From positions 23,336 to 87,335 of the forward strand of contig URZE01000003.1 in assembly GCA_900552265.1 (NCBI GenBank): a DNA stretch of 64,000 bases. The letters run 5' to 3'. The notes beneath the pieces are model-generated. The model searched no databases. It saw nothing but the letters and a program-made list of their open reading frames with translations, and was not told the origin of the DNA. A program made the translations under genes and the position numbers. Below, piece by piece: positions 12,142 through 31,493 of the stretch (position 1 is its first letter; each line of letters begins with the position of its first letter). This stretch comes from an uncultured Oscillospiraceae bacterium (GTDB lineage: Bacteria; Bacillota; Clostridia; Oscillospirales; Acutalibacteraceae).

Positions 12142-12156
12142 ATCTTTATGACAATT

Positions 12157-12186
12157 CTCCCATCCGATTTTTGGTGGGAGTTTTTG
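12157..12186 (+). terminator. rho-independent terminator downstream of ftsZ
   Basis: ctcccatc-cgattttt-ggtgggag followed by TTTTT. Confidence 0.65.
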
Positions 12187-12655: not shown

Positions 12656-12925
12656 GTGTATTATGTGAAAGAAATACTTGAATACAGAGCAATAAAGTTG
12701 GGAGAATATATAGTAAAAAATAAGTCTACGGTAAGAAGTGCGGCAAAAAAATTCGGTGTAAGTAAAAGTACTGTGCATAAAGATGTTTCGGAACGACTTA
12801 AAAATATAAATTTATCTCTTTATGAAGAAGTAAAAGATGTTCTTAAAATAAATAAAGCTCAGCGGCATATCCGTGGAGGATACGCTACAAAAAAGAAATA
12901 TGCTATGAAAAAAGTTAATCACTAA
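12656..12925 (+). CDS. spoIIID: stage III sporulation protein D (SpoIIID), mother-cell transcription regulator
   Basis: 89 aa. From memory this aligns with B. subtilis SpoIIID (IKLGEYIVKNKSTVRSAAKKFGVSKSTVHKDV...EEVKDVLKINKAQRHIRGGYATKKKY). GTG start at 12656 or 12665 (GGGAG RBS). Confidence 0.85.
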   Translation: MYYVKEILEYRAIKLGEYIVKNKSTVRSAAKKFGVSKSTVHKDVSERLKNINLSLYEEVKDVLKINKAQRHIRGGYATKKKYAMKKVNH

Positions 12926-13434
12926 AGCCAATCCTACATTTACATTACAATTATCGTAATCAGTATAAAATCTCCATTCAGTAAAAAATAAACTTAATAT
13001 TTTAAGTTATTAAATTTCATAGTTTTATAAAAATAAAATACGAGTAGATTATAAATTTTTATATCTTAATAATTCAATATTTTTAAAAAATGCGTTAGTA
13101 TTTAAAAATCTCCGTTATAATATCGAAATCAATTGAACAAACAAAAATCAAAAATTAATATTGGAAATTTAAGGACAAGCATTTAAAAAACATATTGAAC
13201 TTTAAAATATCAATCAACAACATTTTGTTTTGGAACAAATGATTGTAAAACTGTAGTTTCTACAGAAATTTTAAACTCGTTATAAAGTTAAATTACATTA
13301 TAAAAAAATAATTACTACATTTTTTAAAAAGTACATTATAAAATTATTTAAATATAAACTAACATTATACTTAAACTTGTTTTTGGATAAATTTTAGTGT
13401 TTTTGATATAATATTTTTCAGATCTAAAAGAGGA

Positions 13435-15231
13435 GTGATATTTATAAAAATAAAATATTTAAAAAAATCATTAAAATATCTTTCTACATATCGAAATATG
13501 TTGTTTTTAATTTTATTCAATTTGATTATATCGCAGATATGCGGATTTTTTTTGCCCTGTATAATGGCTGATATTGTAGATATAGGTATAAAACAACATG
13601 GATTTGTTGATATGGGAATTGTACGGGCGACTATGTCGGAATCTGAAATAATAAGGTGTCAAACTTCATACATACTGTCAAAGGGAGCAATTATGACGGG
13701 AATCACGCTGATTGTAGTGATTCTTGACGCTTTTACGGGGTATATAATTTCAAAAATTTCAGCGGATATGTCATTAAAGCTCAGGAGAGATGTGTTTTTA
13801 AAAATATCTGATTTTTCATATCGAGATTACGATAAATTTTCCGTCTCTTCGCTTATAACAAGAGCTACTTCCGATGTGGAAAGTGTAAAGATCATGGTTT
13901 TATCTTCCACAAAAATGGTAATTCTGCCTTTTATGATAGGCGGCGGAATTTTTATGGCAATACAAAAAAGTGCTTCAATGAGCAGTATAATGGCATGGGG
14001 ATCTGTTGGAGCCGTCGTGTGTGTTACAGCGTGTTTTTTGTTGGTAACTCCCAAAGTGAAAATTTTTCAAAAATTATTTGACAATTTCAATCAAATAATA
14101 AAGGAACGATTAAGCGGAGTACAGTTAATACGTGTTTTCGGTAAAGAAGAGTTTGAGCGTAAGAAATTTAAAAAATCAAATGAGAAATTAACTTCAACTT
14201 CGCTATTTATAAATAAGATTACAATTATGATGGTTCCGATTCTTACTGCTATAATAAATTTTATGACAGTTTTTATTGTTTGGGTCGGAGCTGAAAATAT
14301 AAGTAAAAGCAGTATGAATGTCGGAGATGTAATGGCTTTTTTGCAATACGCAACAATGGTAATAACGGCATTTGTAATGCTTTCGATAACGATTTCTTCT
14401 ATGCCGAAATTTTGGGTATCAGCAGAAAGAATTTTTGAAGTGCTGGACACAGAAACAGTTACTAAAAATGAGGGAAAAAAATTTATTGAAAATATAAATT
14501 TAATTGAATTCAAAGACGTTGAATTCAGATATCCGGGAGCAGAAGAAAACGTTTTAAGTAATTTAAATTTTACTATAAAAGCTGGAGACCGAATAGCAAT
14601 AACGGGAACTACGGGTTCAGGTAAATCCACATTGATTAAACTTTTGCTCGGATTTTATGCACCGTCAAACGGAAGTATACTTGTGAATGGTACTGACTTG
14701 AAAGATATCGATAAAAAAAATTTTTTAGAAAAAATCTCATATGTTCCGCAGGCCGGAACGCTGTTTTCGGGAAAACTTTCTTCTAATTTGCGTATAGGAA
14801 ATGAAAATGCAACAAAAGATGAAATGAAGCGTTCGTTGGAAATTGCTCAGATATCTGATTTTGTAAATGAAAACGGATTTGATTTTGAAATAATGAAAAA
14901 CGGTAACAATATTTCGGGAGGACAACGACAAAGAATAGCAATAGCTCGAGCTATTCTGAGAAATGCCGATATGTATGTGTTTGACGATAGTTTTTCTCGA
15001 TTAGATTTCAAAACTGATTCAAATTTAAGGAAAGCTCTTAATACACAAATTAAAGACGCTGTAAAAGTGACGGTTTCTCAAAGAATAGGTACGATAAAAC
15101 AATCTGATATGATAATTGTTTTAGATGAAGGAAAAATTTCCGGAATCGGAACTCATGAAAAACTCATGCTCGAATGTGAAATTTATAAAAATATGGCGGA
15201 ACTTCAGCTGGGAAAGGAGGAAGCAAAGTAA
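13435..15231 (+). CDS. ABC exporter, fused permease/ATPase (heterodimer subunit 1)
   Basis: 598 aa. Six TM segments then an NBD (Walker A GTTGSGKST, signature ISGGQRQRIAIARA, Walker B MYVFDDSFS). Exact start uncertain; the ATG at 13498 is possible. Confidence 0.85.
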   Translation: MIFIKIKYLKKSLKYLSTYRNMLFLILFNLIISQICGFFLPCIMADIVDIGIKQHGFVDMGIVRATMSESEIIRCQTSYILSKGAIMTGITLIVVILDAFTGYIISKISADMSLKLRRDVFLKISDFSYRDYDKFSVSSLITRATSDVESVKIMVLSSTKMVILPFMIGGGIFMAIQKSASMSSIMAWGSVGAVVCVTACFLLVTPKVKIFQKLFDNFNQIIKERLSGVQLIRVFGKEEFERKKFKKSNEKLTSTSLFINKITIMMVPILTAIINFMTVFIVWVGAENISKSSMNVGDVMAFLQYATMVITAFVMLSITISSMPKFWVSAERIFEVLDTETVTKNEGKKFIENINLIEFKDVEFRYPGAEENVLSNLNFTIKAGDRIAITGTTGSGKSTLIKLLLGFYAPSNGSILVNGTDLKDIDKKNFLEKISYVPQAGTLFSGKLSSNLRIGNENATKDEMKRSLEIAQISDFVNENGFDFEIMKNGNNISGGQRQRIAIARAILRNADMYVFDDSFSRLDFKTDSNLRKALNTQIKDAVKVTVSQRIGTIKQSDMIIVLDEGKISGIGTHEKLMLECEIYKNMAELQLGKEEAK

Positions 15232-17024
15232 TGAAGTCAAATGAGCAAACAAAAGATAAATCGCAAAATTCGGAAATAAAGAGAACAAGGTATAATATAA
15301 AGAAAGTTTGGAATTATGTTTCCGAATATAAGATATATATTTTTGTTATATTTATTTTTGCAATCCTTGAATCTTTGTCGATTGTTTTTGGTCCCAAACT
15401 TACCGGTAGTGCGATTACATTGCTGTCTGAAGAAAATATTGACTTTGATTATCTTTTTAAAATAATAATTAAAATGTTGTTGCTTTTTTCTGTTTATGCA
15501 TTGTCGTCATGTCTTGGTAGTTATTTCGTGTCACTTGTGACGATAAAAGTAACATACAGACTTCGCAATGAAATATCTCTCAAAATGGACAAGCTTTCTC
15601 TTGAATACATTAACAGCGTTAGTTATGGTGATGTCCTTTCTTGTGTTATGAACGATGTAGAAAGTCTTAGTTCAGCGTTTACACAAAGCATAAGTCGTAT
15701 TGCTTCATCTGTTGTAATGGCAATCGGAGTACTTTTTATGATGATATCAATAAGCTTTAAAATGACTCTTGCTTTTATAGCTGTTTTACCTGTGATAGGG
15801 ATTGTAGCGGTGATCATCTTAAAAAAATCACAAAAATATTTTGTTGAATATCAAAAACAACTCGGAGAAATAAATGGATTTATAGAAGAAACTTTTTCAG
15901 GTCACGAAGTTATAAGTATTTTTAATGCAAAAGATAAAATTAAAAACAATTTTGATGAAATAAATCATAGAATGTACGATTCTTCTCAAAAATCACAATT
16001 TTTATCAGGAATTACTCCTTGTGTGGTGGAAATGATTTCTAAAGCAAGTTACATAGTTTCATGCGTAATGGGAGGATATCTTGCGGTTATGAAATTACTG
16101 AGTATAGGTGATATAACAGCTTTCATTGCGTATTCTAATCAGTTTATGGAACCGGTCATTCAGGTAACTTCCATTTCGGGAATTCTACAGCAAATAGTCG
16201 CTTCTTCACAGAGAATTTTTGAATTTCTTGAAGCACCCGAAGAACCACAAAATGATAAAGAAGATTTGGATGTAAATATTAATTCTCTACAAACATATGA
16301 GATAGAATTTAAAAATGTAAGTTTTGGATATACTTCCGAAAAGAAAATAATAAAAGATTTTTCACTTAAAGTTAAATTAGGTCAAACTCTTGCAATAGTA
16401 GGAGAAACGGGTTCCGGTAAAACCACTCTTATAAATATTTTAATGAGATTTTTGGAAAATTTTGAGGGAGAAATATTGTTAGGTGGAAAAAATATAAAAA
16501 GTTTTTCTCTCAAAGAATACCGTAAACTATTTGGATTGGTAACTCAAGATTCCTGGTTATACGGCGGTACAATATATGAAAATATAGCTTACGGAAAAGA
16601 AAATTCTTCCGAAAATGAAATAAAATTTGCAGCTGAACATGTAGGAGCAAGTCATTTTATAGAGTCTTTACCTGCAGGATACAATACTGTAATTGCAGAA
16701 AATATGTATAACATATCCGAAGGTCAAAAACAGCTTTTATGTATTGCAAGAATGATATTGAAAAACGCTCCGATTTTTATCATGGATGAAGCCACATCTT
16801 CCGTCGACGTTTTTACGGAAAGCCGTATACAGAATACTCTAAAAAAAATTCTAAAGGATAAGACTTCCATTGTAATAGCGCACAGACTTAGTACTATAAA
16901 AAATGCTGATCTTGTGGCCGTTATGGAAAAAGGTAAACTTATGGAAATAGGTACGCATGATGAGCTTATGCATAAAGAGGGAATATATTTCAACATGTAT
17001 ATGAGTCAATTTGATAGAGTATAA
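15231..17024 (+). CDS. ABC exporter, fused permease/ATPase (heterodimer subunit 2)
   Basis: 597 aa. TMD then NBD (GETGSGKTT, ISEGQKQLLCIARM, IFIMDEATSS). Start overlaps the upstream stop (TAATG). Confidence 0.85.
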   Translation: MKSNEQTKDKSQNSEIKRTRYNIKKVWNYVSEYKIYIFVIFIFAILESLSIVFGPKLTGSAITLLSEENIDFDYLFKIIIKMLLLFSVYALSSCLGSYFVSLVTIKVTYRLRNEISLKMDKLSLEYINSVSYGDVLSCVMNDVESLSSAFTQSISRIASSVVMAIGVLFMMISISFKMTLAFIAVLPVIGIVAVIILKKSQKYFVEYQKQLGEINGFIEETFSGHEVISIFNAKDKIKNNFDEINHRMYDSSQKSQFLSGITPCVVEMISKASYIVSCVMGGYLAVMKLLSIGDITAFIAYSNQFMEPVIQVTSISGILQQIVASSQRIFEFLEAPEEPQNDKEDLDVNINSLQTYEIEFKNVSFGYTSEKKIIKDFSLKVKLGQTLAIVGETGSGKTTLINILMRFLENFEGEILLGGKNIKSFSLKEYRKLFGLVTQDSWLYGGTIYENIAYGKENSSENEIKFAAEHVGASHFIESLPAGYNTVIAENMYNISEGQKQLLCIARMILKNAPIFIMDEATSSVDVFTESRIQNTLKKILKDKTSIVIAHRLSTIKNADLVAVMEKGKLMEIGTHDELMHKEGIYFNMYMSQFDRV

Positions 17025-17235
17025 AACTAAGCCACCGAATATATCGGTGGCTGTTAATTTGTCTGTTAAAAGTATAAAATTTAAATTTTGATTTTTTACC
17101 TTTCATTGGGAAAGGAAAAATTACTTAGTCTTTTGGGTGGCATATAGGGTTGCTCTGGAGATTCACGGAAAGTAGTAGGTGTTCTAAGACTTTTTAATAT
17201 TTCCTTGTATTTTACCGTATTTTTTTTGACATCAC

Positions 17236-17547
17236 CTATGAGATTTTTTCACCGGTAGAAAGTTTATTCAATAATGTTACACGAGTAATGTCTCTAATGA
17301 CATTTTCATAATTTTCTTGTGTAAAGTTTTTTCCACCGCCGATACTTTCTAATTCTTCCTCAGAAATTTCTCCATTTTTTTCTTCGAATAATTCGAATAT
17401 TTTTTTCAATTCATTTGCTTTTTCAAGAGATATCTCTATTCCGTTGTCGTTAAGATATTTTTTAATTTCCTCCCCACTTGCAAGTGACTGGAGATATGGA
17501 ACGGTATCGGGTTTATCTAAAAATTCTATTATTTGCTCTTTTTCCAT
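17236..17547 (-). CDS. Nif11-like leader / double-glycine precursor peptide (about 73-aa leader, 30-aa Cys-free core)
   Basis: 103 aa. N-terminal Nif11-type domain (MEKEQIIEFLDK...SGEEIKKYLNDNGIEISLEKANEL). ISEEELESIGGG matches LSxxELxxIxGG. Core KNFTQENYENVIRDITRVTLLNKLSTGEKIS. RBS AGGAAG. Confidence 0.6.
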   Translation of the reverse strand: MEKEQIIEFLDKPDTVPYLQSLASGEEIKKYLNDNGIEISLEKANELKKIFELFEEKNGEISEEELESIGGGKNFTQENYENVIRDITRVTLLNKLSTGEKIS

Positions 17548-17829
17548 GGTTAACTTCCTTTCTATTAAAAAATTTGTTACTATTATATATTATTATTTAA
17601 TATAATACAATAAAAAAATTAAAAATATTAAAATAATATACTTTTTTTAAAAACATTTTAATATATAAAAATATTTTTTATTTAATATTAAGAAAATAAA
17701 AACACATAAAAACTGCAATATGTGTAGTTATATGGCATGTTATAAACCTTAACATATAACAATATTTGGTGGAAGTGTAACATATTGGTTAACGGATATA
17801 AAACCTTTTCGGTTCGGCTAAAAAATGAT

Positions 17830-17961
17830 ATGGTGGAGCAACTCGACCGTGTTGCATTTAATACGGGGAGAAGCAGAAATGAACTGATAGGGATGATGCT
17901 TCGTTTCGCTCTGGATAACTGCAAAATCGAAGGGAGTACCCCTTCAATAAGTGGGTTCTGA
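17830..17961 (+). CDS. possible ribbon-helix-helix (CopG/Arc-like) small protein, 43 aa (below ORF-track cutoff); maybe a remnant
   Basis: MVEQLDRVAFNTGRSRNELIGMMLRFALDNCKIEGSTPSISGF. Beta-strand plus helix pattern of RHH antitoxin/repressor N-termini. Lies in a GC-richer island inside a 0.9-kb AT-rich spacer. No clear SD. Confidence 0.3.
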   Translation: MVEQLDRVAFNTGRSRNELIGMMLRFALDNCKIEGSTPSISGF

Positions 17962-18163
17962 TTTATAAAGTCAGGCCCGGTTTTGCTACATAAATTACAG
18001 CAGATACAAAGTATAATTTGTACCTGCCGTAGTTTCGTATATATTTTTATGCTTCTTAGTTTTTTTCTTTTTTTATTCCGAATATTTTTCTCAAAATAAA
18101 TCCTAAAACACCGGGACTTTTTATTACAACAACTTTCATCCGTTAAACCCCCTATATTCAGAA

Positions 18164-18370
18164 TCAACATTTTATAAGAGCTATCGATAATATTACAAGT
18201 ATAATCGATATTATAATAATGATCAGAGATTCAGGAAATAAAAATGAAAGCGTAAGCCCCAGCCCGAAAGCAAGTGCCAGAATGCCTTGCTGTTTGTAGC
18301 CGCACATAAACTTCACCGCCGTTACTTTGAAAATTAATATGCGAATATAAGCCCGACTGAAACTTAACAT
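18164..18370 (-). CDS. hypothetical small membrane protein (2 predicted TM)
   Basis: 68 aa, very hydrophobic (ILALAFGLGLTLSFLF...IIIIISIILVILSIALI). Sits in an AT-rich region, so it may be spurious. Confidence 0.2.
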   Translation of the reverse strand: MLSFSRAYIRILIFKVTAVKFMCGYKQQGILALAFGLGLTLSFLFPESLIIIIISIILVILSIALIKC

Positions 18371-19959: not shown

Positions 19960-22296
19960 GTGACGAAGAAATTGAAAAACGAAGCTGTTAAAACTTATGG
20001 TAAAATTTTTGATTTTGCAAAAAATTGTTCGATGAAGTTGCTTTTTGTTAAAGCAATGTACTTTGTTTCAGGAATTTTAATTTCTCGAGGTAGTGTTTTG
20101 GGAAGTTATTATCCGTTCGGAATATCTTTATCGGCATCAGTTCCGGGAGCAGTAATAACACCGGCAGTTGTGGGAACGCTTTTGGGTTATCTTTTTCCGT
20201 TAAGACTTGCAGTAAGTGTGAGATACATATCTACAGTAATAGCAGTTGCAGCAATTCGCTGGGCACTAAGTGACCTTAATAAAATAAAAAAACATGCTTT
20301 ATACACGCCATCAATTGTGTTTATTTCGGTTTTTGTAACGGGATTCGCCATAAATTCAGCCGAAGGACTTGATGCTCGTGATGTTTCTTTAAGTGTCTTG
20401 GAAGCTTTTGTTGCGGCAGTTGCGGCTTATTTCTTTGATAGATCTTTTAGAATTTTGTCTGAGAGAAAAATTTATACATTAAATTCCAAAGAATTTATGT
20501 GTTTGTCTTTAAGTTTTAGTATGGTTTCTTTATCTCTTTCTGGATTGTGTATAGGAGGAATTTCCGTAGGAAGAATTTTGGCAACCGTGATGATTTTGAT
20601 TTCTTCATACATAATGGGAATTACCGGTGGAGCAATTTCAGGAATTTCCTGTGGAGTAATTTTCAGTTTACCATCGTTTGGTTTTACATATCTTTCGGGA
20701 GCATATGCTTTTGGAGGAATGGTTTCCGGATTTTGTTCATCATTTGGAAGAATTGGGATATGTATGGCGTTTTTATGCGCAAATACTCTAATGTCTTTTC
20801 AGGCAGGAAATACGGTAAAAATGGTAAGTGGCTTCTACGAAACTATAATTGCCGTAGGAATATTTTTGGCTTTACCGAATGCATTTTATAAAAAATTTAA
20901 AACACTTTCGCCGTCATTTTCAAAAATTTGTGATGCAGATGCTTTGAGAAAATCTGTAGTTCAAAAATTAAGATTTGCAAGTGCTTCACTCGGCTCTGTA
21001 CCGGAATGTATAGAAAAAGCTTCTTCTGAATTTTCAGCATCAAATAAAATTGATTCAAAGAGTATTTGTGTGGCAGGAGCGTATAAGATTTGTCGATCAT
21101 GTGGACTTTGCGGTTTATGCTGGTCTAAAAACAGTGATGATACTCACAGAAACTTCAATACGATGACAGATTTGATTTTGCAAAATCGTAATGTCACTTC
21201 CAAAGATTTTTCTTCTGGATTTTTAAGTAGGTGTCATAAAACCGATTTGCTTATAGAAAATTCTTTAAAATCCTATCATGATTTTTGTGTTCAAAATACC
21301 GCTCGCAGACAAATAAGTGAATTTAAAAAAATTATGACCGAACAAATGAGCGGAATAAGTTCACTTATAGAAAATATTTCAGACGATATTTCACATACGT
21401 GTACTTTTGATGAAACTTTGGCCATGAGCATAACAAATGAACTTGCAGATCGTGGCATAGGCGTTATCGGGACAGTTTGCAAAAAAGATGAAAACGGTAA
21501 GCTTTTCATAGATATTGAATGTGAGTCAATTATATACGATAAATTTGACTCAAAAGTTTTTGAACTAATTTCTAAAATTTGTAATAAAAAATTAAGTGAA
21601 CCCACAATGAATATTTTAGGTAATTTATGTAGAATTCAACTTTGCGAAAAGAAAGTTTTAGCTGTTGACTTTGGGTTTAGCCAGCACTCTTTCAATAACG
21701 GTAAATACTGCGGCGACAGTTGTACAAAATTCGAAGATGGAGAAGGTAATTTTAACGTAATAATCAGCGACGGAATGGGAACCGGAGGCTCAGCAGCAGC
21801 TCAAGGTGCAATGACTTCAGGTTTGATGAAAAGTTTTGTAAGATCGGGAATAGATTTTGATTCTTCCGTCAAATTTGTAAACTCAGCACTTCTTCTCAGA
21901 CCCGGTGAAGAAAATCTTTCTACTTTGGATGCATTTTCTGTAAATCTTTTTACCGGAGAAGCTAAATTTATGAAAGCCGGTTCACCGCTTACTTTCATTG
22001 TTCATAATGAAGAAATAAGTAAAATAGATTTTGAATCTCTACCGATAGGAATACTTAGTAATGTTTCTTTTTCTTCTCAAAAGTTAAAACTTTGTGAAGG
22101 AGACTGGATAATAATGATGTCAGATGGAGTAACGGATATAGGTGACGAATGGATAAAAGAGCTTATAAACTCCAAGAAATATGATACTGCTGAAGAGTTG
22201 GCTCGTATGATAGTGAAAAGTGCTGTCCTGATTCGCAGTAAAGTTCACGATGATGACATTACAGCTGCAGTAATTAAAATTTCGAAAAGAATTTGA
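19960..22296 (+). CDS. spoIIE: stage II sporulation protein E (SpoIIE), membrane-anchored PP2C phosphatase
   Basis: 778 aa. About 10 N-terminal TM helices, central regulatory region, C-terminal PP2C domain (ISDGMGTGGSAA...MMSDGVTD). Start is GTG at 19960 or TTG at 19972 (GAGGTG RBS). Confidence 0.85.
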   Translation: MTKKLKNEAVKTYGKIFDFAKNCSMKLLFVKAMYFVSGILISRGSVLGSYYPFGISLSASVPGAVITPAVVGTLLGYLFPLRLAVSVRYISTVIAVAAIRWALSDLNKIKKHALYTPSIVFISVFVTGFAINSAEGLDARDVSLSVLEAFVAAVAAYFFDRSFRILSERKIYTLNSKEFMCLSLSFSMVSLSLSGLCIGGISVGRILATVMILISSYIMGITGGAISGISCGVIFSLPSFGFTYLSGAYAFGGMVSGFCSSFGRIGICMAFLCANTLMSFQAGNTVKMVSGFYETIIAVGIFLALPNAFYKKFKTLSPSFSKICDADALRKSVVQKLRFASASLGSVPECIEKASSEFSASNKIDSKSICVAGAYKICRSCGLCGLCWSKNSDDTHRNFNTMTDLILQNRNVTSKDFSSGFLSRCHKTDLLIENSLKSYHDFCVQNTARRQISEFKKIMTEQMSGISSLIENISDDISHTCTFDETLAMSITNELADRGIGVIGTVCKKDENGKLFIDIECESIIYDKFDSKVFELISKICNKKLSEPTMNILGNLCRIQLCEKKVLAVDFGFSQHSFNNGKYCGDSCTKFEDGEGNFNVIISDGMGTGGSAAAQGAMTSGLMKSFVRSGIDFDSSVKFVNSALLLRPGEENLSTLDAFSVNLFTGEAKFMKAGSPLTFIVHNEEISKIDFESLPIGILSNVSFSSQKLKLCEGDWIIMMSDGVTDIGDEWIKELINSKKYDTAEELARMIVKSAVLIRSKVHDDDITAAVIKISKRI

Positions 22297-22594
22297 TATA
22301 TTTTACTTTTTAAAATGAAATTACGGAGTAAAATTTATGCTTGTATTTTTTGATTAGTTAAAAAGAAATTTAACATATTTATTTAGAGATTAACTGCTTT
22401 TATGTAGTTAGTCTTATTTTTTACTATAATTTTTAAATTTAATTTAAAAAATTAATTATGTATTAAAATTTAGATATGGTTTTATTTATAAAATTATGAT
22501 ACAATTAGGATATTAATTAAATTTGGTTTAAGACAGTGATTATTTTTATTAATAACTAGTATCACCATAATTTATAGAATCAGGAGAAATTAAA

Positions 22595-23056
22595 ATGAAT
22601 AAAAAATTATTAGAAAAATTAAAACAAACAGGTCTTATGGAAAAAATAGTTGATTGTAGTAACAAAAAGGAAATCAAAAAGATTAACAATGAAGAAATAA
22701 ACAACCAAATTAACAAAATTCCTTTCACAATATCTAAGATAGATGAAGAAGATATGGAAAATATTTCAGGAGGAATTGGAGAAATTCGAGATACACTTGC
22801 TCACCTTATCGACAACATCGGATATGGAATTTATAGATTCAATAACACAAATGAAAAAGCAATAGAAGACTATAATTTTAAAGACAAAATTATTGATAAT
22901 TTTCAATTGTTCACGCTTAAACATTCTGAAGATATAGCAAATGTAACACTAGGAGCAGTAATTATAACAGGATGGGTTATGTTGGGACGTTTTGTATATA
23001 AAAAGCTGGGTAATAAAAAGGATTGGTGGAAAAATAACACAATTAGTAAAAATTAA
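22595..23056 (+). CDS. double-glycine leader precursor protein (Nif11-like 59-aa leader; 94-aa core with one TM helix and a basic tail)
   Basis: 153 aa. Leader ends IDEEDMENISGG. Core contains VTLGAVIITGWVMLGRFVYKKL. The core is paralogous to the next ORF's core. RBS AGGAG. Confidence 0.55.
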   Translation: MNKKLLEKLKQTGLMEKIVDCSNKKEIKKINNEEINNQINKIPFTISKIDEEDMENISGGIGEIRDTLAHLIDNIGYGIYRFNNTNEKAIEDYNFKDKIIDNFQLFTLKHSEDIANVTLGAVIITGWVMLGRFVYKKLGNKKDWWKNNTISKN

Positions 23057-23231
23057 TTATAAATCTATATTAGCGATAAAATAAGTTTTTTATACAAAAA
23101 TTTCGTGCAAAACATAATTAAACTAGGTTTTGTTATGGTACGTATTAAAATTCATCAATTATTCAATCAGTTTAGTAGTTTATAATTAAATATTTATTAA
23201 AAATAATTTAAATTATTAATAAAAATTACTG

Positions 23232-23260
23232 TTGACAATTCTAGTAAAAAAGGTTATAAT
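23232..23260 (+). promoter_or_regulatory. consensus sigma-A promoter TTGACA-17 bp-TATAAT upstream of the second GG-leader gene
   Basis: gttgacaattctagtaaaaaaggttataat is a perfect match to both hexamers with optimal spacing. Confidence 0.55.
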
Positions 23261-23319
23261 TATAACTGTAACTTAATAAAATTAAAGATATTTTAAATTT
23301 AATTACAGTGGAGGTAAAA

Positions 23320-23691
23320 ATGAAAGAGATTAGAAAAAATTTGAACAATAATAAAATATCCAGAATAAGTGATGAAGATATGGAAAGTATTTTTGGTGGA
23401 AGTTCCACATTTGATAAGTTAAATACACTAAATAGGGATATGCGTGTTGCCCTGTTTAAACATGCCAACAGTAGAATTAGCGGGGTACCGGAATCAGACT
23501 ATGGTTATAAACATAAATTTTTACGTCAAGTTGGCATAAATTCTCAAGGTATAGTAGATACTGCCATGTTATCAACTCTAGTGATAGGGATAGTTTTCGC
23601 AGAACGATTATTCTGCAAACTTACTAATAAATTACTTACAAGAAATACTAATCATGTAAAAAATAATACTACTCCTAATCCAGTTGACTAA
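23320..23691 (+). CDS. double-glycine leader precursor protein (27-aa classic GG leader; 96-aa core with one TM helix)
   Basis: Likely ATG start at 23320 with GGAGG RBS (the ORF track starts at the GTG at 23308). Leader MKEIRKNLNNNKISRISDEDMESIFGG. Core has TM DTAMLSTLVIGIVFAERLFCKL. Confidence 0.55.
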   Translation: MKEIRKNLNNNKISRISDEDMESIFGGSSTFDKLNTLNRDMRVALFKHANSRISGVPESDYGYKHKFLRQVGINSQGIVDTAMLSTLVIGIVFAERLFCKLTNKLLTRNTNHVKNNTTPNPVD

Positions 23692-24228
23692 CACTCATTT
23701 TGTATGACGCTTGTGATCATTAAAAATTAATTGAACTTTTAAGTTGTGCTAGATACTATAATAAGTAAATTTTATCTCAATTTCATATTTTACACAATTC
23801 TTATAACCCTTTAATAACCCTTTACACACAGCATTTCTATTAAAAATCAAAGTCTTTACTCATACACTTAAGATTAACGCAGTTTCTGTCTACTTGTCTG
23901 GTTTTTATTATTGTTGACTGTTACAAAACTTTATTATCGCTGTGTGTTTGATTCTATTTTTAGATATAAATCTTGCTGTATTTGTACGATTCCGATTTTT
24001 GTTGTTAAATGTAGTAGTAAAAATTCATGTTACTCGTTTTTAGTTTGCTCTTTTTGATTTTTGGCAACTTGTGTGTTTTTGGTTGTTATATCAAAAAGAG
24101 CTTTTGTGTGCAAAAATTTGTAAAACACACTGTTATTTAAATAAATTTCAATAAAAATTGACACAAATAAAGTTTAAAAATAAGCTATATTCAAAAATAA
24201 GTATACTTGCAATACTAAACAATAAATG

Positions 24229-24251
24229 AGCCTCCTCTTTTTGAGGAGGCT
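24229..24251. terminator. bidirectional rho-independent terminator (agcctcctc-ttttt-gaggaggct)
   Basis: Perfect 9-bp GC-rich stem, 21 nt downstream of the ABC2 stop. Lies between the convergent precursor genes and the transporter operon. Confidence 0.7.
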
Positions 24252-24271
24252 TGAATTGCATTTTATAAAAA

Positions 24272-26434
24272 TTACTGAACTACTTGACGAACAGCTAATT
24301 CATAAAACTCACCTTTTTTATCCATAAGGTCATCATAAGTTCCTTCTTCTACTATTTTTCCTTTATCCATAACAAGGATTCTGTCACAATTTTTTATTGT
24401 AGAAAGTCTGTGAGCTATCACAATCCTTGTACTTTTAAGCTGAGATATACTGTTTACCACATGACTTTGAGTTATGTTATCAAGAGCAGATGTAGCTTCA
24501 TCCAAAAACAATATTGAAGGTCTATTTATAATCGCTCGAGCTATCATAAGTCTTTGTTTCTGTCCTCCGGAAAGTCCTCCCGAACCTTCGGAAATCAGCG
24601 TATGCATACCCATTGGCATTGCTTTTATATCATTATCTATTCCTGCCAAACGAGCTGCTTCCCATGCATCATCCATTGTTTTCCAGGGTGATGTTATTAT
24701 TATGTTGGAAAAAATGTCACTCGGGAACAACGAACCGTTTTGCATTACCACGCCTATTTTTTGACGAACACTTCTAAGATCAAGTCCGGAAAGATCATGG
24801 CCGTCATAATACACCGCTCCGGTGTCAGGATCCTCAAATCCGAGTAAAATTCTCATCAAAGTTGATTTTCCGCAACCTGTTTTTCCTACTATTGCAACAT
24901 ATTCTCCCTTTTTCACTTTAAGGTTTATGTTATCAAGAATTGTCGGACCGTCTTTATCATATTTAAAAGAAATATTATTAACTTCAATATTTCCGGAAAG
25001 AGATGTCGGAATTTTACGTCCGGCGCTGCTTTCGGGTTTTTGTTCCATAACAGGTTTAATCATCTTCAATATAGGACCGAGATTGGCAAATTTAAGAGCT
25101 ACCGCACTAAGTGACATTATTGCCCCCGTAACCGAACCGTAAGCGGTATTGAATCCCATATAATCCTCTAAGCTTACATGAGTTGTAACTGTACAATAAT
25201 ATAATACCATTTGTCCCACTGTAGATATTATCAGGCCTATAATACCGCTTATTTTTATGAGAAGTGGCGGAGAATAATCAAGTTTTTCTACCTCAGAATA
25301 ACTCTCAGCCCATTTTGCAAAGGCTCTTTTCTCGGAACCGGTAACTTTTATCTTCTGTATACCTCCGAAAAGAGCGTATGTCAGAGATTGTAATTTTGGA
25401 TCAAGGTCAAGTCTTTTTTTGTATATCTTTTGTCTGTAAAGAGTTATAAATACCTGATAAACAACTGTAACCACCACGATAATCATTCCCGGTACCACAA
25501 GTGATGGTCCGTATTGATACATCTGGAAGAAATATGCCAAAGAGAAAACAGCTGAAAGAGTAGCTGAAAATGATTCTCTGATTATCTGACAAAGAGTAGC
25601 TATATACCCCATTCGGCTTGCAAGTTCACCGGCAGTGTAACTTTTGAAAAACTTAGTCGGCAAAGTGAAAAAACGTATCATTATTGCACTGTTAACCGAA
25701 ATAGTCATCCTCGTGCTAAGGCGATTCGAAACTATACTGTTCGTAATCGACATAAGCGTTTCTCCTACAGTTTTTCCTATGAAGAATGCAGCCAACGGCC
25801 AAATAAGCGAAAGTGTACCTGAAGGAATTATGTTTTTATATATAATTTTCTGAATAATAGGACCCGTCATTCCAAGCAACTGAGCAACTGCATACGCTGA
25901 TAAAATAAATACGACATCTATAAAAGACAAGCTTTCTATCATAAATTTTATCAAATCACGTATTTTAAGGGACGTCAGAGGGAACGCACGATAAAAACAA
26001 AAAGCGTCTACATTTATATCCTTTGCAGTTTTGCTGTTTACTTTTATCTTATTTCCATCTGCATTTATATATTCGTATCCTCCCCACTTACGAGGGAAAA
26101 TCGCAACCACATTCCCATCTTTAGTTGAACCTAAAAGACATCCCATACTGTCTTTCCACCACTCACCGTTAAGCTCCACACGTCTTCTCATAGTGTTTGA
26201 CGGTTTGAGCATGTAATCAAGCTGAGCGTCTAAAGTAGCTACACTGTCAGGAACCGTTGGAATTTCTTTTCCGAGATATCTGAGTATCTGAGCAACAGCT
26301 CCCTTAGCTTGTTTATGCATTTTGGGTGTATCTATACCTACAATCGAAAGCAAATCCGAAAATGCTCCTTGAAACATCTCATCATCGCTTCTTCTTCTTC
26401 TTTGAACCTGACTTTCCAAAAAATTTGTTTCCAT
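24272..26434 (-). CDS. NHLM-type bacteriocin-system ABC transporter, ATP-binding/permease with degenerate N-terminal peptidase-like domain (ABC2)
   Basis: 720 aa. N-terminal ~170 aa resemble the C-terminal half of a C39 domain but lack the catalytic Cys/His. Then 6 TM and an NBD (GKTGCGKST, LSGGQKQRLMIARA, ILFLDEATSALD). Confidence 0.75.
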   Translation of the reverse strand: METNFLESQVQRRRRSDDEMFQGAFSDLLSIVGIDTPKMHKQAKGAVAQILRYLGKEIPTVPDSVATLDAQLDYMLKPSNTMRRRVELNGEWWKDSMGCLLGSTKDGNVVAIFPRKWGGYEYINADGNKIKVNSKTAKDINVDAFCFYRAFPLTSLKIRDLIKFMIESLSFIDVVFILSAYAVAQLLGMTGPIIQKIIYKNIIPSGTLSLIWPLAAFFIGKTVGETLMSITNSIVSNRLSTRMTISVNSAIMIRFFTLPTKFFKSYTAGELASRMGYIATLCQIIRESFSATLSAVFSLAYFFQMYQYGPSLVVPGMIIVVVTVVYQVFITLYRQKIYKKRLDLDPKLQSLTYALFGGIQKIKVTGSEKRAFAKWAESYSEVEKLDYSPPLLIKISGIIGLIISTVGQMVLYYCTVTTHVSLEDYMGFNTAYGSVTGAIMSLSAVALKFANLGPILKMIKPVMEQKPESSAGRKIPTSLSGNIEVNNISFKYDKDGPTILDNINLKVKKGEYVAIVGKTGCGKSTLMRILLGFEDPDTGAVYYDGHDLSGLDLRSVRQKIGVVMQNGSLFPSDIFSNIIITSPWKTMDDAWEAARLAGIDNDIKAMPMGMHTLISEGSGGLSGGQKQRLMIARAIINRPSILFLDEATSALDNITQSHVVNSISQLKSTRIVIAHRLSTIKNCDRILVMDKGKIVEEGTYDDLMDKKGEFYELAVRQVVQ

Positions 26435-26447
26435 GTCCGCTCACCTC

Positions 26448-28628
26448 CTATTCCGTTATTACGAGTTCTTTATATTTTCCGCCTTGAGCCATAAGTTCAT
26501 CGTGAGTACCACGCTCGGCAACCCTACCATGATCTAACACAATTATTTCATTACAGTCACGTATGGTTGAAAGCCTATGAGCAATGACTATACATGTGCA
26601 GCCTGATTTTCTTATATTGCTCATTACGATATTTTCGGTTTTAGCATCAAGCGCAGATGTTGCTTCGTCAAGAATGATAACCGTAGGTTCCTGAGCAAGA
26701 GCTCGAGCAATTTCAATACGCTGACACTGACCTCCTGAAAAATCTGTTCCGCCTTCGCTTATTACGTGGTCGTAACCATCAGGTCTCGAAATTATGGCGC
26801 TGTGTATGTCGGAATCTCTCGCAGCTAAAGTTACAGAGAAATCCTCTATAGACTCATCCCACATTCTTATGTTATTTTTAACGGTATCGTGAAACATTAT
26901 TTTGTCCTGGTCAACCATTACTACCGAACTGTGAAATTTATATGGATCTATTTGATCCTTTTTCATTCCATCGAAAGTTATTTCACCTTCCCATGGTTTG
27001 TAAAGACCCGTTATCAATTTTGCAACGGTTGATTTTCCGCTTCCGCTTCCTCCTACAACCGCAACCCACTGTCCCGGTTTAAGACTCATGTTAAAATCTT
27101 CAAGAATCGGTTTTGCAAGCCTTCCGTATCCAAATGTTATTCCTTTTACATTTACATAACCCTTTAATTTTGTGTCATCTTTGACACTTTCTTCACTTAC
27201 TTCCGGAACATCTACCGGATAATCCAAAACGTCTTCAACACGCTCCATTTCACAGCGCATTCCAATATAGTTTTGATATATGTCTATAATGCTTCCCACA
27301 GGGCTCAAAAACATCGACAAATATCCTTGAAATGCTCCCAGCATACCTACCGTGAAATGTCCCTGCATAATGATATAAATACCGCAGAGAACTAAAATAC
27401 ATCCAGAAATGCTATCGACAAATGACGGAATCGTTCCGATATACTGTGTAAACTTGGACATATTTGCAACAGCATTATTTTGCTTCGCAAAATATCCTGC
27501 CCATCTTTCAAAATATCCGCTTTCCGCTCCAGTGGATTTTATTGTTTCTATCATCTCAAATCCGGAATACGTTACACTCATGAGTTTTCCCTGATTAGGC
27601 ATTGAAGCTCTTTGAAAATCAAGCATCTTCTCTGACATATATCTTGCCAAAAACATATTTATGGCAGTTGCTCCGATTCCTATCAAAGTAAGAACCCAGC
27701 TATATTTAATCATAATGAAAAGGTAAAAGAAAAGAGAAACTATTCCACTGAACATAGGTGCTATTTTATGAATAAGAGTAAGCGCTATAGATGAGGTGGA
27801 ATCCTGACGTGAAACAACGTCTCCAACATTACGTTGAGAAAAGAAATCTAACGGTAACCGGAGAACATGCCACATGAATTCCGCACTGGAAGTAAGGGCA
27901 AATTTTCCTTCTATCTTAAGCCAGTAAATAGAATTTATAATACCTACCAAAACTTGTACAAGAAGTACAACTCCCATAATTCCTAAAAACGGCATCAGCC
28001 ATTCGGGATTTTTCCCTGTAAGTAGATTATCCGTAAATACACGTGTAAACATTGGTGAAGTGGTTGCAATAACGTCTCCCACTACGCTTATAATTACTGC
28101 CAATACAAACGGTACAAGCGCTCCTTTAAGACACCTCTTAGCAAATGAGAAAACACTCTTCGGCTTTCCCTCGGGTTTAAATTCTTCCGTTGGTTGCATA
28201 GTAAGTGCAATTCCCGTAAAAGCCTTATCAAATTCTTCCCCTGAAACCGTTACTTTTCCTCTTGCCGGATCGTTAATGTAATACTTATTCTTTTTTTCGT
28301 TTATACCGCACAGCACAACAAAGTGATTGAAATTCCAATGGATTATTACAGGTAAAGTCAAAGAACTCAAAGATGATGGCTCAAGTCTATACCCTCCCGA
28401 TTCAAATCCATAAGAACGTGCTGCAGCAAGCATATTCTTAGCTACACTACCGTCACGTGAAACTCCGCAATCTGCACGAACTTGAGTTAAAGGAATCCAT
28501 TTCTTGTAGTAAGCGGCTATCATACATACACACGCTGCTCCACATTCAAGAGCTTCCATCTGCATTACAATCGGCACTTTCAACCTTTTGCGTAACATCA
28601 GTACGCACCTCCTATCATTTATTTTCAA
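26448..28628 (-). CDS. peptidase-containing ABC transporter (C39 double-glycine peptidase + permease + ATPase), NHLM ABC1 / PCAT
   Basis: 726 aa. N-terminal C39 domain with intact catalytic triad context (QMEALECGAACVCMIAAYY; NHFVVLCGI; YINDP). TMD. NBD (GGSGSGKST, FSGGQCQRIEIARA, VIILDEATSALD). Overlaps the upstream HlyD-like gene by 14 nt. Confidence 0.85.
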   Translation of the reverse strand: MKINDRRCVLMLRKRLKVPIVMQMEALECGAACVCMIAAYYKKWIPLTQVRADCGVSRDGSVAKNMLAAARSYGFESGGYRLEPSSLSSLTLPVIIHWNFNHFVVLCGINEKKNKYYINDPARGKVTVSGEEFDKAFTGIALTMQPTEEFKPEGKPKSVFSFAKRCLKGALVPFVLAVIISVVGDVIATTSPMFTRVFTDNLLTGKNPEWLMPFLGIMGVVLLVQVLVGIINSIYWLKIEGKFALTSSAEFMWHVLRLPLDFFSQRNVGDVVSRQDSTSSIALTLIHKIAPMFSGIVSLFFYLFIMIKYSWVLTLIGIGATAINMFLARYMSEKMLDFQRASMPNQGKLMSVTYSGFEMIETIKSTGAESGYFERWAGYFAKQNNAVANMSKFTQYIGTIPSFVDSISGCILVLCGIYIIMQGHFTVGMLGAFQGYLSMFLSPVGSIIDIYQNYIGMRCEMERVEDVLDYPVDVPEVSEESVKDDTKLKGYVNVKGITFGYGRLAKPILEDFNMSLKPGQWVAVVGGSGSGKSTVAKLITGLYKPWEGEITFDGMKKDQIDPYKFHSSVVMVDQDKIMFHDTVKNNIRMWDESIEDFSVTLAARDSDIHSAIISRPDGYDHVISEGGTDFSGGQCQRIEIARALAQEPTVIILDEATSALDAKTENIVMSNIRKSGCTCIVIAHRLSTIRDCNEIIVLDHGRVAERGTHDELMAQGGKYKELVITE

Positions 28629-29202
28629 ATATCAACTCATAGAGCTTTGTTTCTCCTACAACTGCGGATACTTCACAATTGGTACCCTCAACAATTTCAA
28701 TTTCATTTCCTTTGTCGTTGGACCATTCTCCGAGAGCAATTTCAACCTCCATTACATTCCCATGTTGCATCGCAGAACTTACAAGAGGAACCACAACCTG
28801 AGGATTACCGAATTTTTCATTCAAATAATCACCGGTTACTATATCATCACTGATTCTAAGTATTGTTCCATTCATATAACCATATTCTGAACTTGGTGCG
28901 TCCTCAGGAGAAATCCTTGCAGACATTCCTTCTTTCAAACGTTTACTTGCCGAAATTGGAACATAACAATAAATTCTTTGTGAATTACTTACATCCTTAG
29001 CGATTACCCCTTGCATATCTACGGTTTTCGGAATTCCTCCTGAAAAAATCCATATCGCTCCTGCAGACAGAATAGTAAATATTCCGATAAGTATAGCTAT
29101 CAGGCTGGGATTGACTACTTTAATGTATTCGTTAAGCTGTTCCGGCGAAGAAACTCTCTCCAACGAACTTTTTCGAAATAAACTACTTTCATTTTCTGAC
29201 AT
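28615..29202 (-). CDS. short HlyD-family membrane fusion/secretion adaptor protein
   Basis: about 195 aa. N-terminus LERVSSPEQLNEYIKVVNPSLIAILIGIFTILSAGAIWIFSG is the HlyD-family signature region plus one TM. Short beta-rich periplasmic part with no long coiled coil. Probable ATG start at 29202 (RBS AAGGAAAGGTG). Confidence 0.6.
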   Translation of the reverse strand: MSENESSLFRKSSLERVSSPEQLNEYIKVVNPSLIAILIGIFTILSAGAIWIFSGGIPKTVDMQGVIAKDVSNSQRIYCYVPISASKRLKEGMSARISPEDAPSSEYGYMNGTILRISDDIVTGDYLNEKFGNPQVVVPLVSSAMQHGNVMEVEIALGEWSNDKGNEIEIVEGTNCEVSAVVGETKLYELIFENK

Positions 29203-29370
29203 ATTTCTCACCTTTCCTTAAATCTTTATTTTATTAAACACACTGTACTTTACTATTTAAAAATAATAATATAAAAATATTCTCAAGTCAATATATTTTT
29301 GGTGATTTATATATAAAACAACAACAAAATAACAGACCTTTCATATAAAAAATCTGTTATATATCATTTT

Positions 29371-29985
29371 TTATTCTTCTTTAAAACTTTTTATAACTTT
29401 AAGTCTGGAAAACTCTTCACGTTCTTTTTCTTCCAAAGCATCGGAAATAGATTTTATCTGGTTTTCAAACTTTGGTATCATAATATTTTTAAGAGCATTT
29501 GCTCTCTTTTGAGTCTTTTTTATCGCATTTGCCAACAGATACACACTTGTTTCGACTTCGGCAAGACTTGCAGTCATCTTACTTACCTCTCGAAAACAAG
29601 AATAAGCTTTATCAAGGTCAGAATTCGAATCATATAATCCAAAAGGAATTTCATCGACTTCTTTTTGCTTAAACTGAACTATCGGTATCTCGACACCCAT
29701 TACACTTCGAAAAGAAAGACTAAGTCCCGATTCTTCAGGTACTGCTTGAGACAACTCTTCACATACACCGAGCGCTATATTGGCTTTTCGCAAAGTCGTA
29801 AATGCTTTCGTATAAGTTTCATCTATACTGTTTTGAATTTCTTCAGCACGTTCGATAAGAGCCATCATTTCTCTGACTAAAATATTTCTTTTTCTATCCA
29901 AAAGTTCAAAACCGAGTTTGGAAAGCTCAAAAGATTTTTTTGCGGCTATTAAATTGCCTTTTGTGGGAGCTATTTGATTTGACAT
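29371..29985 (-). CDS. ntpD: V-type ATP synthase subunit D
   Basis: 204 aa. MSNQIAPTKGNLIAAKKSFELSKLGFELLDRKRNILVREM is typical of V/A-ATPase D. RBS GGGAGG. Confidence 0.85.
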   Translation of the reverse strand: MSNQIAPTKGNLIAAKKSFELSKLGFELLDRKRNILVREMMALIERAEEIQNSIDETYTKAFTTLRKANIALGVCEELSQAVPEESGLSLSFRSVMGVEIPIVQFKQKEVDEIPFGLYDSNSDLDKAYSCFREVSKMTASLAEVETSVYLLANAIKKTQKRANALKNIMIPKFENQIKSISDALEEKEREEFSRLKVIKSFKEE

Positions 29986-30004
29986 AACTTACCTCCCTTA
30001 TAAA

Positions 30005-31474
30005 CTAATTATCATCTGCGTCGTCGATGTCGTCATCCATTTCCTCAGAAGTTTCATCTTCAACAAAATCAATCTTATTTTTACGCTCGAGAAGTTCTTT
30101 ATCGTCGATATAATATTTGTCAAGAGTTTCACCGCTAACTCTGTCAAGTTCCTGTTTCGGAAGTGTGGAAAGAAGTCGCCATCCAAGTTCCAAGCTTCGT
30201 TCTATTGACCTGTTATCGTTAAATCCTTGATTAATAAATTGTTTTTCAAAGGCATTTCCGAAATTGATATACAATTTATCTATAGGTGATAAATCTTCTT
30301 CACCTATAACCGACGCCAGTGCTCTTGCATCCTGAACCTTTGCATATGATGCAAAAAGCTGATTGGCAAGTTCCGGATGATCTGCTCTGGTAAATCCCTC
30401 TCCTATTCCATCTTTCATAAGCCTTGAGAGAGATGGCAAAACTGAAATCGGAGGATAGTATCCTTTGCGGTCTATCGCTCTGTCAAGAACTATCTGACCT
30501 TCTGTAATGTATCCGGTAAGATCGGGCACCGGATGAGTTATATCGTCATTGGGCATGGTAAGAATCGGAATTTGTGTAACTGAACCTTTTTTACCTTTTA
30601 CTATACCGGCACGCTCATAAAGAGAAGCAAAATCCGAATAAAGATAGCCAGGATAACCCTTACGACCCGGAATCTCTCCCTTTGAAGAACTAAATTCTCT
30701 AAGAGCTTCAGCGTACGAAGTCATATCCGTCATAATTACAAGAACGTGCATTCCAAGTTCAAAAGCAAGATATTCGGCTGTAGTAAGCGCACATCTCGGA
30801 GTCAAAATTCTTTCTATTACTGGGTCATTGGAAAGGTTAAGATACATTACAACTCTTTCAATTACTCCCGATTCATCAAACTTACGTCTAAAATATTCCG
30901 CAACGTCATTCTTTACTCCCATGGCAGCAAAAACTATTGCAAGATTATCTTCTTCACCCTCTGCAAGTTTGGCCTGACGAGCAATCTGAACCGCAAGTTC
31001 ATTATGCTTCATTCCCGAACTTGAAAATATCGGAAGTTTTTGTCCTCTTATAAGAGTAGAAAGTGTATCTATCGAAGAAATTCCCGTATTTATATAATTT
31101 TGTGGATACTCCCTCGCAATAGGGTTTATTGGAGTTCCGTTAATATTCATTTTTTTATGCGGAAAAACTTTTCCCAGATTATCTATCGGCTCACCTGAAC
31201 CGTTAAAAACACGACCTAAAATCTCCGGAGAAAGAGAAATCTCCATTGGGTGACCTTTTAATTTAACTTTCGTATCGTCAAGAGCAATAGCTTGAGTTCC
31301 TTCAAAAACTTGCACTATAACTCTGTCACCCTCAATCTGGACTATACGACCTTTTCTATAATTCCCGTCTCCGAGTTTGATATCAACAACCTCTTCATAT
31401 GACGCACCCTCAACTCCGTCTATAACTATCAGAGAACCGCTTATTTCCTTTAATCCAACATAATTCAGTACCAA
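30005..31474 (-). CDS. ntpB: V-type ATP synthase subunit B (with an unusual acidic C-terminal tail)
   Basis: 489 aa. Conserved B-subunit core. C-terminal about 30 aa is highly acidic ([17 protein letters not shown]). TTG start with GAGGTGA RBS. Confidence 0.9.
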
Positions 31475-31493
31475 TTATCTCACCTCTTTTTCG

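Follow-up and report, generated by a model that had tools for sequence, protein, structure and literature searches.

In the 64,000-nt stretch of uncultured Oscillospiraceae DNA analyzed here (the window, whose positions serve as coordinates throughout), two neighboring genes encode precursor proteins with N-terminal double-glycine (GG) leaders, designated P1 and P2. The initial annotation had described both open reading frames (ORFs) as convergent on an ATP-binding cassette (ABC) export operon with a C39 peptidase domain, and this arrangement was confirmed, with both ORFs on the forward strand. The operon encodes a peptidase-containing ABC transporter (PCAT; ABC1), a second ABC subunit (ABC2) and an accessory protein. 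Upstream of the pair lies spoIIE, and beyond the transporter lies a V-type ATPase operon. The features that concern us first are the following.

22595-23056, forward strand: P1 precursor gene, 153 amino acids; leader, residues 1-60 (22595-22774), ending ...EDMENISGG; core, 93 amino acids (22775-23053).
22934-23053, forward strand: P1 C-terminal module; hydrophobic segment IANVTLGAVIITGWVMLG (residues 114-131), then the basic tail RFVYKKLGNKKDWWKNNTISKN.
23232-23260, forward strand: sigma-70-type promoter of P2, TTGACA-17-TATAAT, matching the consensus at 12/12 positions.
23320-23691, forward strand: P2 precursor gene, 123 amino acids; leader, residues 1-27 (23320-23400), ending ...EDMESIFGG; core, 96 amino acids (23401-23688).
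23560-23688, forward strand: P2 C-terminal module; hydrophobic segment TAMLSTLVIGIVFA (residues 81-94; D80 before it, E96-R97 after it), then a basic, Asn-rich tail.
24227-24253, no strand assigned: GC-rich hairpin with a terminator score on both strands; 11 pairs, 6 GC.
24272-26434, reverse strand: ABC2, NHLP-type ABC subunit without peptidase; TIGR03797, 724.5 bits against a cut-off of 709.4.
26448-28598, reverse strand: ABC1, the PCAT; TIGR03796, 873.6 bits against a cut-off of 853.3.
28615-29202, reverse strand: HlyD-like accessory protein, 195 amino acids; TIGR03794, 95.7 bits against a cut-off of 156.2.

P1 sits directly downstream of spoIIE and has a ribosome-binding site (AGGAGA, 22582-22587) 7 nt ahead of its ATG; its orthologues are 153-154 amino acids long, at 97-98% identity. 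P2 almost certainly starts at ATG 23320, rather than at the listed GTG 23308, because a GGAGG lies at 23310-23314 and because orthologues are called at 123 amino acids (95-97% identity, with one strain variant of 137 amino acids). The genes are 263 nt apart, and the perfect promoter described for P2 was found as stated. The -10 box of this promoter overlaps with a perfect palindrome of 14 bp, GTTATAATTATAAC (23253-23266), which could be an operator. The palindrome was rejected as a shared operator: no second copy occurs anywhere in the window, and hence there is no evidence of a regulon. Upstream of P1, TGATACAAT (22496-22504) has the form of an extended -10 element; it is also similar to CATACAnT, the sigma-E consensus for the -10 region, and in such AT-rich DNA this promoter-like match could be due to chance. 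A sporulation link via the upstream gene was likewise discarded: spoIIE adjoins the transporter in no related species, and we therefore treat its adjacency to P1 as incidental.

The pair had been described as separated from the transporter operon only by a strong bidirectional terminator. The hairpin is present and bidirectional, but it is not the sole separator: it abuts the transporter, 19 nt past the ABC2 stop codon, and lies 535 nt past the P2 stop, across a spacer (23692-24226) with no convincing ORF on either strand. The flanking spacers of both genes were likewise without one. For a gene-dense region, the 535-nt spacer is long, and other strains conserve it at about 95-99%; an Rfam search of 22250-24350 returned no RNA family.

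The GG motifs occupy residues 59-60 of P1 (...ISKIDEEDMENISGG) and 26-27 of P2 (...ISRISDEDMESIFGG), and the two leaders are alike in having I at positions -4, -12 and -15, M at -7 and D at -8. The published PCAT leader consensus, L(-12)xxxE(-8)L(-7)xxxxG(-2)G(-1), has been explained by the PCAT1-CtA structure (PMC6959990), and both leaders fit it, with conservative I, D and M substitutions at the diagnostic positions, as expected of PCAT substrates. The double-glycine leaders proposed for both ORFs were thus borne out. The further proposal that the P1 leader is Nif11-like and 59 amino acids long was not: it measures 60 amino acids including the GG, and the curated Nif11 leader model TIGR03798 (cut-off 32.3 bits) did not match P1, whether the full-length protein (E≤0.1) or just its leader (E≤1) was searched. 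A clade-specific profile built from 65 long leaders of related loci aligned with P1 residues 3-60, end to end, at a weak 15 bits. Because TIGR03798 was silent and the clade profile gave only 15 bits, we would call the P1 leader a degenerate long leader rather than a member of the Nif11 family. The P2 leader is short (27 amino acids) and weakly resembles TIGR04149, a radical SAM-modified leader of peptides that are made on the ribosome and modified after translation (RiPPs), at E=0.0056, below the cut-off. Both precursors fall below the curated Nif11 and NHLP leader models.

As had been suggested, P1 and P2 are paralogous, with a similarity that is weak but genuine. BLASTP aligned them from the leader end to the C-terminus (E=7e-8, 28% identity), the hydrophobic segments falling opposite each other as claimed. 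A MAFFT alignment of P1, P2 and their orthologues has 30 invariant columns, which include a DY.xK.K motif, K..NK in the tail and, within the hydrophobic zone, G/V/R, and the coding DNA of the leader ends forms a 47-nt direct repeat of 79% identity.

The export system facing the pair is complete. ABC1 and ABC2 both score above their family cut-offs, and together with the HlyD-like protein they make up the three-gene NHLP/N11P export system that Haft et al. (PMC2887384) linked to NHLP and Nif11-type precursors. In ABC1, Peptidase_C39 was found at E=8e-36 over profile positions 1-132 of 133, and the translation shows Q..ECGAAC, NHFVV and NDP motifs, supplying Cys, His and Asp; its orthologues are called at 716 amino acids. 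Pfam assigned ABC_membrane and ABC_tran to ABC2, with no C39 domain. The TIGR03794 match of the HlyD-like protein is confined to the C-terminal part of the profile. The protein is short (195 amino acids vs. the usual ~420) and is found beside ABC1 in most related loci. ABC1, a PCAT with an intact C39 domain, is encoded 2.8 kb from P2 and is presumed to be the processing and export enzyme for both P1 and P2. The roughly 10 kb to each side hold no tailoring enzyme, be it a cyclodehydratase, a LanM, a radical SAM protein or another kind; the nearest regulators, an Xre-type helix-turn-helix protein and a small sigma-70 region-4 protein, are several kb away. It is very probable that the adjacent PCAT takes P1 and P2 as its substrates, cuts them after the GG and exports them unmodified; the products are taken to be unmodified because no tailoring genes occur among the neighbors.

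The cores were originally given as 94 and 96 amino acids, of which the second figure holds and the first becomes 93. Both are cationic (net charge +2 for P1 and +6 for P2) and contain few cysteines (none in P1, one in P2), and neither is Cys-, Ser- or Thr-rich; the predicted core N-termini are IGEIRD... and SSTFDK..., and the masses, about 10.8 kDa, would be ~10,837 Da for unmodified P1 and 10,793 Da for unmodified P2. The basic tail reported behind each hydrophobic segment is present. In P1, the last 18 residues hold 6 K/R vs. 1 D/E, and acidic residues outnumber basic ones ahead of the helix; P2 follows the same trend. Neither core contains GxxxG, and the only small-xxx-small match inside a hydrophobic segment is GIVFA in P2, with none in P1. 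AlphaFold2 gave both cores the same three-helix layout, with a long C-terminal helix over the hydrophobic segment and the tail (core residues 54-92 in P1). Because the confidence of these models was low (pLDDT 53.6 and 51.2), we use them as a hint of secondary structure only.

Each core had been said to carry a transmembrane helix. A hydrophobic segment is indeed there, but a full transmembrane helix is marginal. The uncharged stretch spans 18 residues in P1 (between D113 and R132) and 15 in P2 (T81-A95, between D80 and E96), and the best 19-residue windows average 1.61 and 1.67, respectively, on the Kyte-Doolittle scale. Summed over 19 residues on the Hessa scale, a crude measure without position or length terms, P1 scores +2.97 and P2 +3.76. 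On the same scale, the single-pass anchors in the window score -2.7 (the strong N-terminal anchor LIAILIGIFTILSAGAIWI of the HlyD-like protein, its only one) and -1.5 (ORF 58364-58657), and helices of multi-pass proteins range from -4 to +4.4. For comparison with other cargo, we collected the 76 unique candidate GG cargo peptides encoded within 10 kb of related NHLP-type transporters; none of these scores below +4.3, their median core length is 44 amino acids, and just 3 of the 76 reach 80 amino acids or more. Classical GG bacteriocins lie between +4.4 (colicin V) and +14.7, these values being approximate, and in a published survey the median GG-bacteriocin core was 47 amino acids (interquartile range 34-69; PMC12648112). 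Because their scores fall between those of cargo and of single-pass anchors, the P1 and P2 segments are unusually hydrophobic for PCAT cargo and sub-standard as stand-alone membrane anchors. The cores are thus atypically long and hydrophobic for GG cargo, as initially noted; their layout is not itself unprecedented, since a hydrophobic helix followed by a cationic tail is known from lactococcin G (PMC2850506), and GG precursors of 28-164 amino acids with very diverse cores have already been described (PMC3140520).

P1 and P2 have no recognizable relatives outside their own species. Word-index searches returned only copies at 81-98% identity, and nothing meaningful came from Pfam, NCBIfam, PADLOC or a PDB sequence profile; tblastn of P1 against plasmids gave no match. 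An exhaustive search of 1.84 billion representative proteins with a profile of the cores alone recovered P1, P2 and one further match, a 559-amino-acid tandem-repeat protein (P0008) that we rejected as spurious. All contigs bearing the pair come from the same species, at ~98-99.5% nucleotide identity and with the same gene order. For the transporter, scanning the genome collection with ABC2 gave 80 loci in gut, rumen and environmental Bacillota, the best 89% identical, and hidden Markov models of P1 and P2 run against six-frame ORFs of these 80 loci found no relative.

In at least 11 species-level genomes, the order V-ATPase / HlyD-like / ABC1 / ABC2 is kept, without an adjacent spoIIE and without P1 or P2, at 66-89% identity for ABC2 and 85-99% for V-ATPase B.

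24272-33275 of the window, with the corresponding parts of loci L005-L007, L010-L013, L015, L016, L042 and L053: export operon directly downstream of the V-ATPase operon.

Because this order is kept in at least 11 species that lack P1 and P2, the transporter appears to be long established in the clade and inherited vertically, and the pair to be a species-specific addition at its 3' flank. One of these loci (L015, 69% ABC2 identity) carries an unrelated 110-amino-acid GG-leader protein at 13466-13798 on the reverse strand, convergent with and 1.3 kb downstream of ABC2; with a 19-amino-acid leader and a 91-amino-acid, Ala/Gly-rich hydrophobic core ending in ...NFLNKK, it is a positional analogue of P1 and P2.

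Variation was also seen within the species. The ratio of non-synonymous to synonymous divergence could not be used with the first four loci, which are ~99% identical, and strain L085 was the sole informative variant. Its flanking genes are 99% identical in nucleotide sequence, but its P2 (8001-8414, P0007; 137 amino acids) is only 85% identical, with a 14-amino-acid insertion, DECVEYTFCESCSI, directly after the GG. The insertion is Cys-rich: it brings three cysteines into a core with a single one elsewhere. Of 10 substitutions, 9 fall between the cleavage site and the hydrophobic segment, which is itself unchanged; the tail shows one L-to-F change, and the leader is identical at 27/27 positions, so that the GG motif is retained in the divergent orthologue, a point on which the initial interpretation depended. 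The ratio of non-synonymous to synonymous polymorphism (pN/pS) is 0.57 for P2, on small counts (13 non-synonymous, 6 synonymous), vs. ~0.02-0.1 for spoIIE and the two ABC genes. A conserved leader with replaceable cargo is known from the NHLP/N11P families and from bacteriocin loci generally, and such fast turnover is typical of antagonism cargo.

We propose, with a probability of about 0.5, that P1 and P2 are unmodified secreted membrane-active proteins, of an orphan, long-cored kind within the class II or microcin-like bacteriocins. The precursors would be made in the cytoplasm with their N-terminal double-glycine leaders; the C39 domain of the PCAT would bind the leader helix via the hydrophobic positions -4, -7 and -12 and cut after the GG; and the unfolded core would be expelled via ABC1/ABC2, with the short HlyD-like protein assisting. 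With its hydrophobic C-terminal helix and its cationic tail, we infer, the largely helical core would then bind and penetrate membranes outside the cell, most probably those of rival bacteria, and P1 and P2 may act jointly. We favor an antagonistic role because the cores are predicted to be helical, are cationic and end in a helix with a cationic tail, because the genes form a paralogous pair restricted to one species, and because the exposed part changes rapidly.

Several observations weigh against such a toxin. No candidate immunity gene was found in the flanks of either P1 or P2; farther off, the ABC pair at 13435-17024 may be a candidate. The pair was present in every strain with readable flanks, with no presence/absence polymorphism, and the transporter has the look of a core locus that the clade inherits vertically, which would fit a housekeeping role as well. 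Furthermore, the cores are about twice the median GG-bacteriocin length, their segments exceed those of the compared classical GG bacteriocins in hydrophobicity (on the approximate values given above), both lack the GxxxG motif, and P1 and P2 have separate promoters instead of forming one operon.

Some of these points would also suit products that are secreted without being antibiotics, such as a signal, a matrix or biofilm component, or a surface protein of the producer, an explanation that we consider possible though rather unlikely. There is precedent for it among GG-leader cargo: in Synechococcus elongatus, several small GG-motif proteins, EbfG1-4, are exported by one PCAT, PteB (PMC4997328), which shows that such cargo need not be antibiotic. 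The missing immunity gene, the conserved and syntenic transporter across the clade, at least five scattered GG-leader genes sharing it, and a pair fixed in all sampled strains are all compatible with a role of this sort. However, fast-changing, species-restricted orphan cores fit antagonism better than they fit a receptor-matched signal or a structural part; no receptor or two-component system lies near the pair; and the hydrophobic helix with its cationic tail suggests interaction with membranes. The Ebf system differs, moreover, in being cyanobacterial, co-transcribed and involved in biofilm function, with no sequence similarity to P1 or P2, and the available text of the same report describes neither a hydrophobic helix nor a basic tail for EbfG1-4.

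The initial annotation had favored tail-anchored membrane proteins processed and exported by a PCAT. Its first half, GG cargo of the adjacent PCAT, is retained; for tail-anchoring there is no positive evidence, and the segments are too short and too weak to count with confidence as anchors on their own. In the form considered here, which seems improbable, the products would be PCAT-dependent single-pass proteins of the producer's own membrane with an N-out/C-in topology: about 55 N-terminal core residues would be translocated, the helix would exit laterally, and the basic tail would stay in the cytoplasm. The charge bias of both proteins, acidic before the helix and basic behind it, fits the positive-inside rule; helix and tail are the best conserved parts of the cores across paralogues and strains, while the presumed outside part varies; and the lack of an immunity gene, the core-like transporter, and segments whose hydrophobicity exceeds that of all 76 cargo peptides encoded near related transporters all agree with it. 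Nevertheless, 18 and 15 uncharged residues at +3.0 and +3.8 compare poorly with real anchors at -2.7 and -1.5. In the PCAT1 structure, cargo lies unfolded in the cavity and is freed to the outside, with no lateral release described (PMC6959990), and a full-text literature search combining double-glycine or C39 with 'tail-anchored' yielded no precedent. In addition, other long GG proteins of this genome bear a short hydrophobic helix near the core N-terminus, unlike a tail anchor. That the PCAT acts as an insertase, offering gut Clostridia a route to N-out/C-in single-pass proteins independent of Sec and YidC, is more doubtful still; if true, the other GG proteins of the genome with long cores could take this route as well.

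RiPP precursors, with cores modified before export as in many NHLP/Nif11 systems, would match the NHLP/N11P-associated transporter families (PMC2887384) and the faint likeness of the P2 leader to TIGR04149 (E=0.0056, below the cut-off), but long, predicted helical cores that are not Cys/Ser/Thr-rich, with no tailoring enzyme within ~10 kb, make this highly improbable. There is just as little chance that the GG motifs are incidental to ordinary cytoplasmic or Sec/YidC-inserted small proteins or to decaying genes, for although P1 and P2 have no family assignment and are known here from sequence alone, and although the P2 pN/pS of 0.57 is fairly high (on only 19 substitutions), the leaders fit the consensus at all diagnostic positions and are the best conserved part of both genes (27/27 residues; 79% of the DNA), the genes lie directly beside their cognate PCAT with good ribosome-binding sites on both and a consensus promoter on P2, and chance is unlikely to produce ORFs of 123-153 codons without interruption at 34% GC.

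Comparison with described systems indicates how far the proposed secreted membrane-active proteins can be classified. In the NHLP/Nif11 (N11P) systems defined by TIGR03794, TIGR03796 and TIGR03797 (Haft et al. 2010, PMC2887384), the same transporter families adjoin the precursor genes, several scattered GG-leader precursors with hypervariable cores occur per genome, and it is the transporter, not the tailoring enzymes, that keeps the leader conserved. P1 and P2 differ from these systems in falling below the curated leader models, in lacking modification enzymes, in having long, helical and hydrophobic cores as opposed to Cys/Ser/Thr-rich ones, and in the half-length HlyD-like protein. PCAT1/CtA of Clostridium thermocellum (PMC6959990), also a Clostridia PCAT with small unmodified cargo and the same leader consensus, serves as our structural model for recognition and cleavage. 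CtA consists of a 24-amino-acid leader and a 66-amino-acid cargo of unknown function (PMC6959990); the cores of P1 and P2 are about 30 amino acids longer and show no sequence similarity to it, and the present locus adds a peptidase-less ABC subunit and an accessory protein.

Lactococcin G and other class IIb bacteriocins share with our pair the adjacent GG-leader genes and products that are helical and membrane-penetrating (as predicted and proposed for P1 and P2), in which a strikingly cationic C-terminal tail comes after a hydrophobic helix. In the model for lactococcin G, the membrane potential pulls this tail across the target membrane (PMC2850506). Class IIb peptides are short (lactococcin G 39/35 amino acids, plantaricin E/F 33/34 amino acids), with leaders of 15-30 residues, one operon that includes an immunity gene, and GxxxG-type (or AxxxA/SxxxS) motifs (PMC2850506). 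For activity, class IIb bacteriocins need both peptides in roughly equal amounts. The 27-amino-acid P2 leader fits this range and the 60-amino-acid P1 leader does not, and the cores of 93-96 amino acids, the separate promoters, and the absence of a nearby immunity gene and of GxxxG set P1 and P2 apart. Because the pair fails class IIb in operon structure, immunity gene, GxxxG and size, we file it only as bacteriocin-like GG-leader PCAT cargo. Closer in size are the class II microcins, unmodified GG-leader antibacterials exported by a PCAT, among which colicin V/MccV (PMC12219008, PMC10233263) has an 88-amino-acid core with a hydrophobic segment; by analogy, colicin V shows that such exporters can handle cores of about 88 amino acids. 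Class II microcins differ in their Gram-negative hosts, leaders of 15-18 amino acids, adjacent membrane immunity protein and Gly/Ala-rich cores, without sequence similarity to P1 or P2.

Diverse long GG precursors, Clostridia PCAT cargo such as CtA, and scattered cargo genes sharing one transporter have thus been described previously. What appears to be new in P1 and P2, judged from their sequences, is an orphan family with unusually long cores and an unusually hydrophobic C-terminal helix. Were the proteins antagonistic, they would represent a bacteriocin family of gut Clostridia that current pipelines miss, because the cores have no homologues, P1 exceeds the usual precursor filter of <150 amino acids, and no immunity gene flags the locus. 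The NHLP-type exporter is also a case of a stable, vertically inherited clade fixture whose cargo changes between species and even between strains. The long hydrophobic cores may offer a convenient case for asking how hydrophobic PCAT cargo can become before it is retained in the membrane, and the interest is modest unless the membrane-insertion reading is true.

P1 and P2 are not the only GG-leader genes presumably served by a single transporter in this region. At least five are scattered over the 64 kb, and the further three are as follows.

17236-17547, reverse strand: third GG-leader gene; long Nif11-like leader (72 amino acids), core truncated or replaced in this strain.
55055-55324, forward strand: fifth candidate GG-leader gene, 89 amino acids; short leader ...LTDAELRNVFGG, ending ...AELRNVFGG, and a hydrophilic 62-amino-acid core.
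60331-60888, reverse strand: fourth GG-leader gene, 185 amino acids; clear long Nif11-like leader ending DLENINGG, and a 115-amino-acid orphan core.

The gene at 17236-17547 probably encodes a further PCAT substrate. Between strains at 99% average nucleotide identity, its leader is identical at 71/72 positions to that in L001 (3694-4170), and its core has 31 amino acids here vs. 86 in L001, the latter with a hydrophobic helix. The 185-amino-acid protein is probably a substrate as well: its core begins with a short hydrophobic helix, CALYIAVAGSIVYFA, and continues with TTGAV(E/K)GLTS-type repeats, and a word-index search with this core returned nothing past a 93% identical copy. The gene at 55055-55324 possibly encodes a fifth substrate, the weakest of the five, proposed from its motif only.

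Arrays of GG-leader genes were also seen at more distant transporters. In loci L064-L068 and L076 (42-44% ABC2 identity), about 6-12 such genes follow the transporter in tandem (~12150-18300, forward strand), with long Nif11-like leaders and cores that are short, mostly hydrophilic and very diverse.

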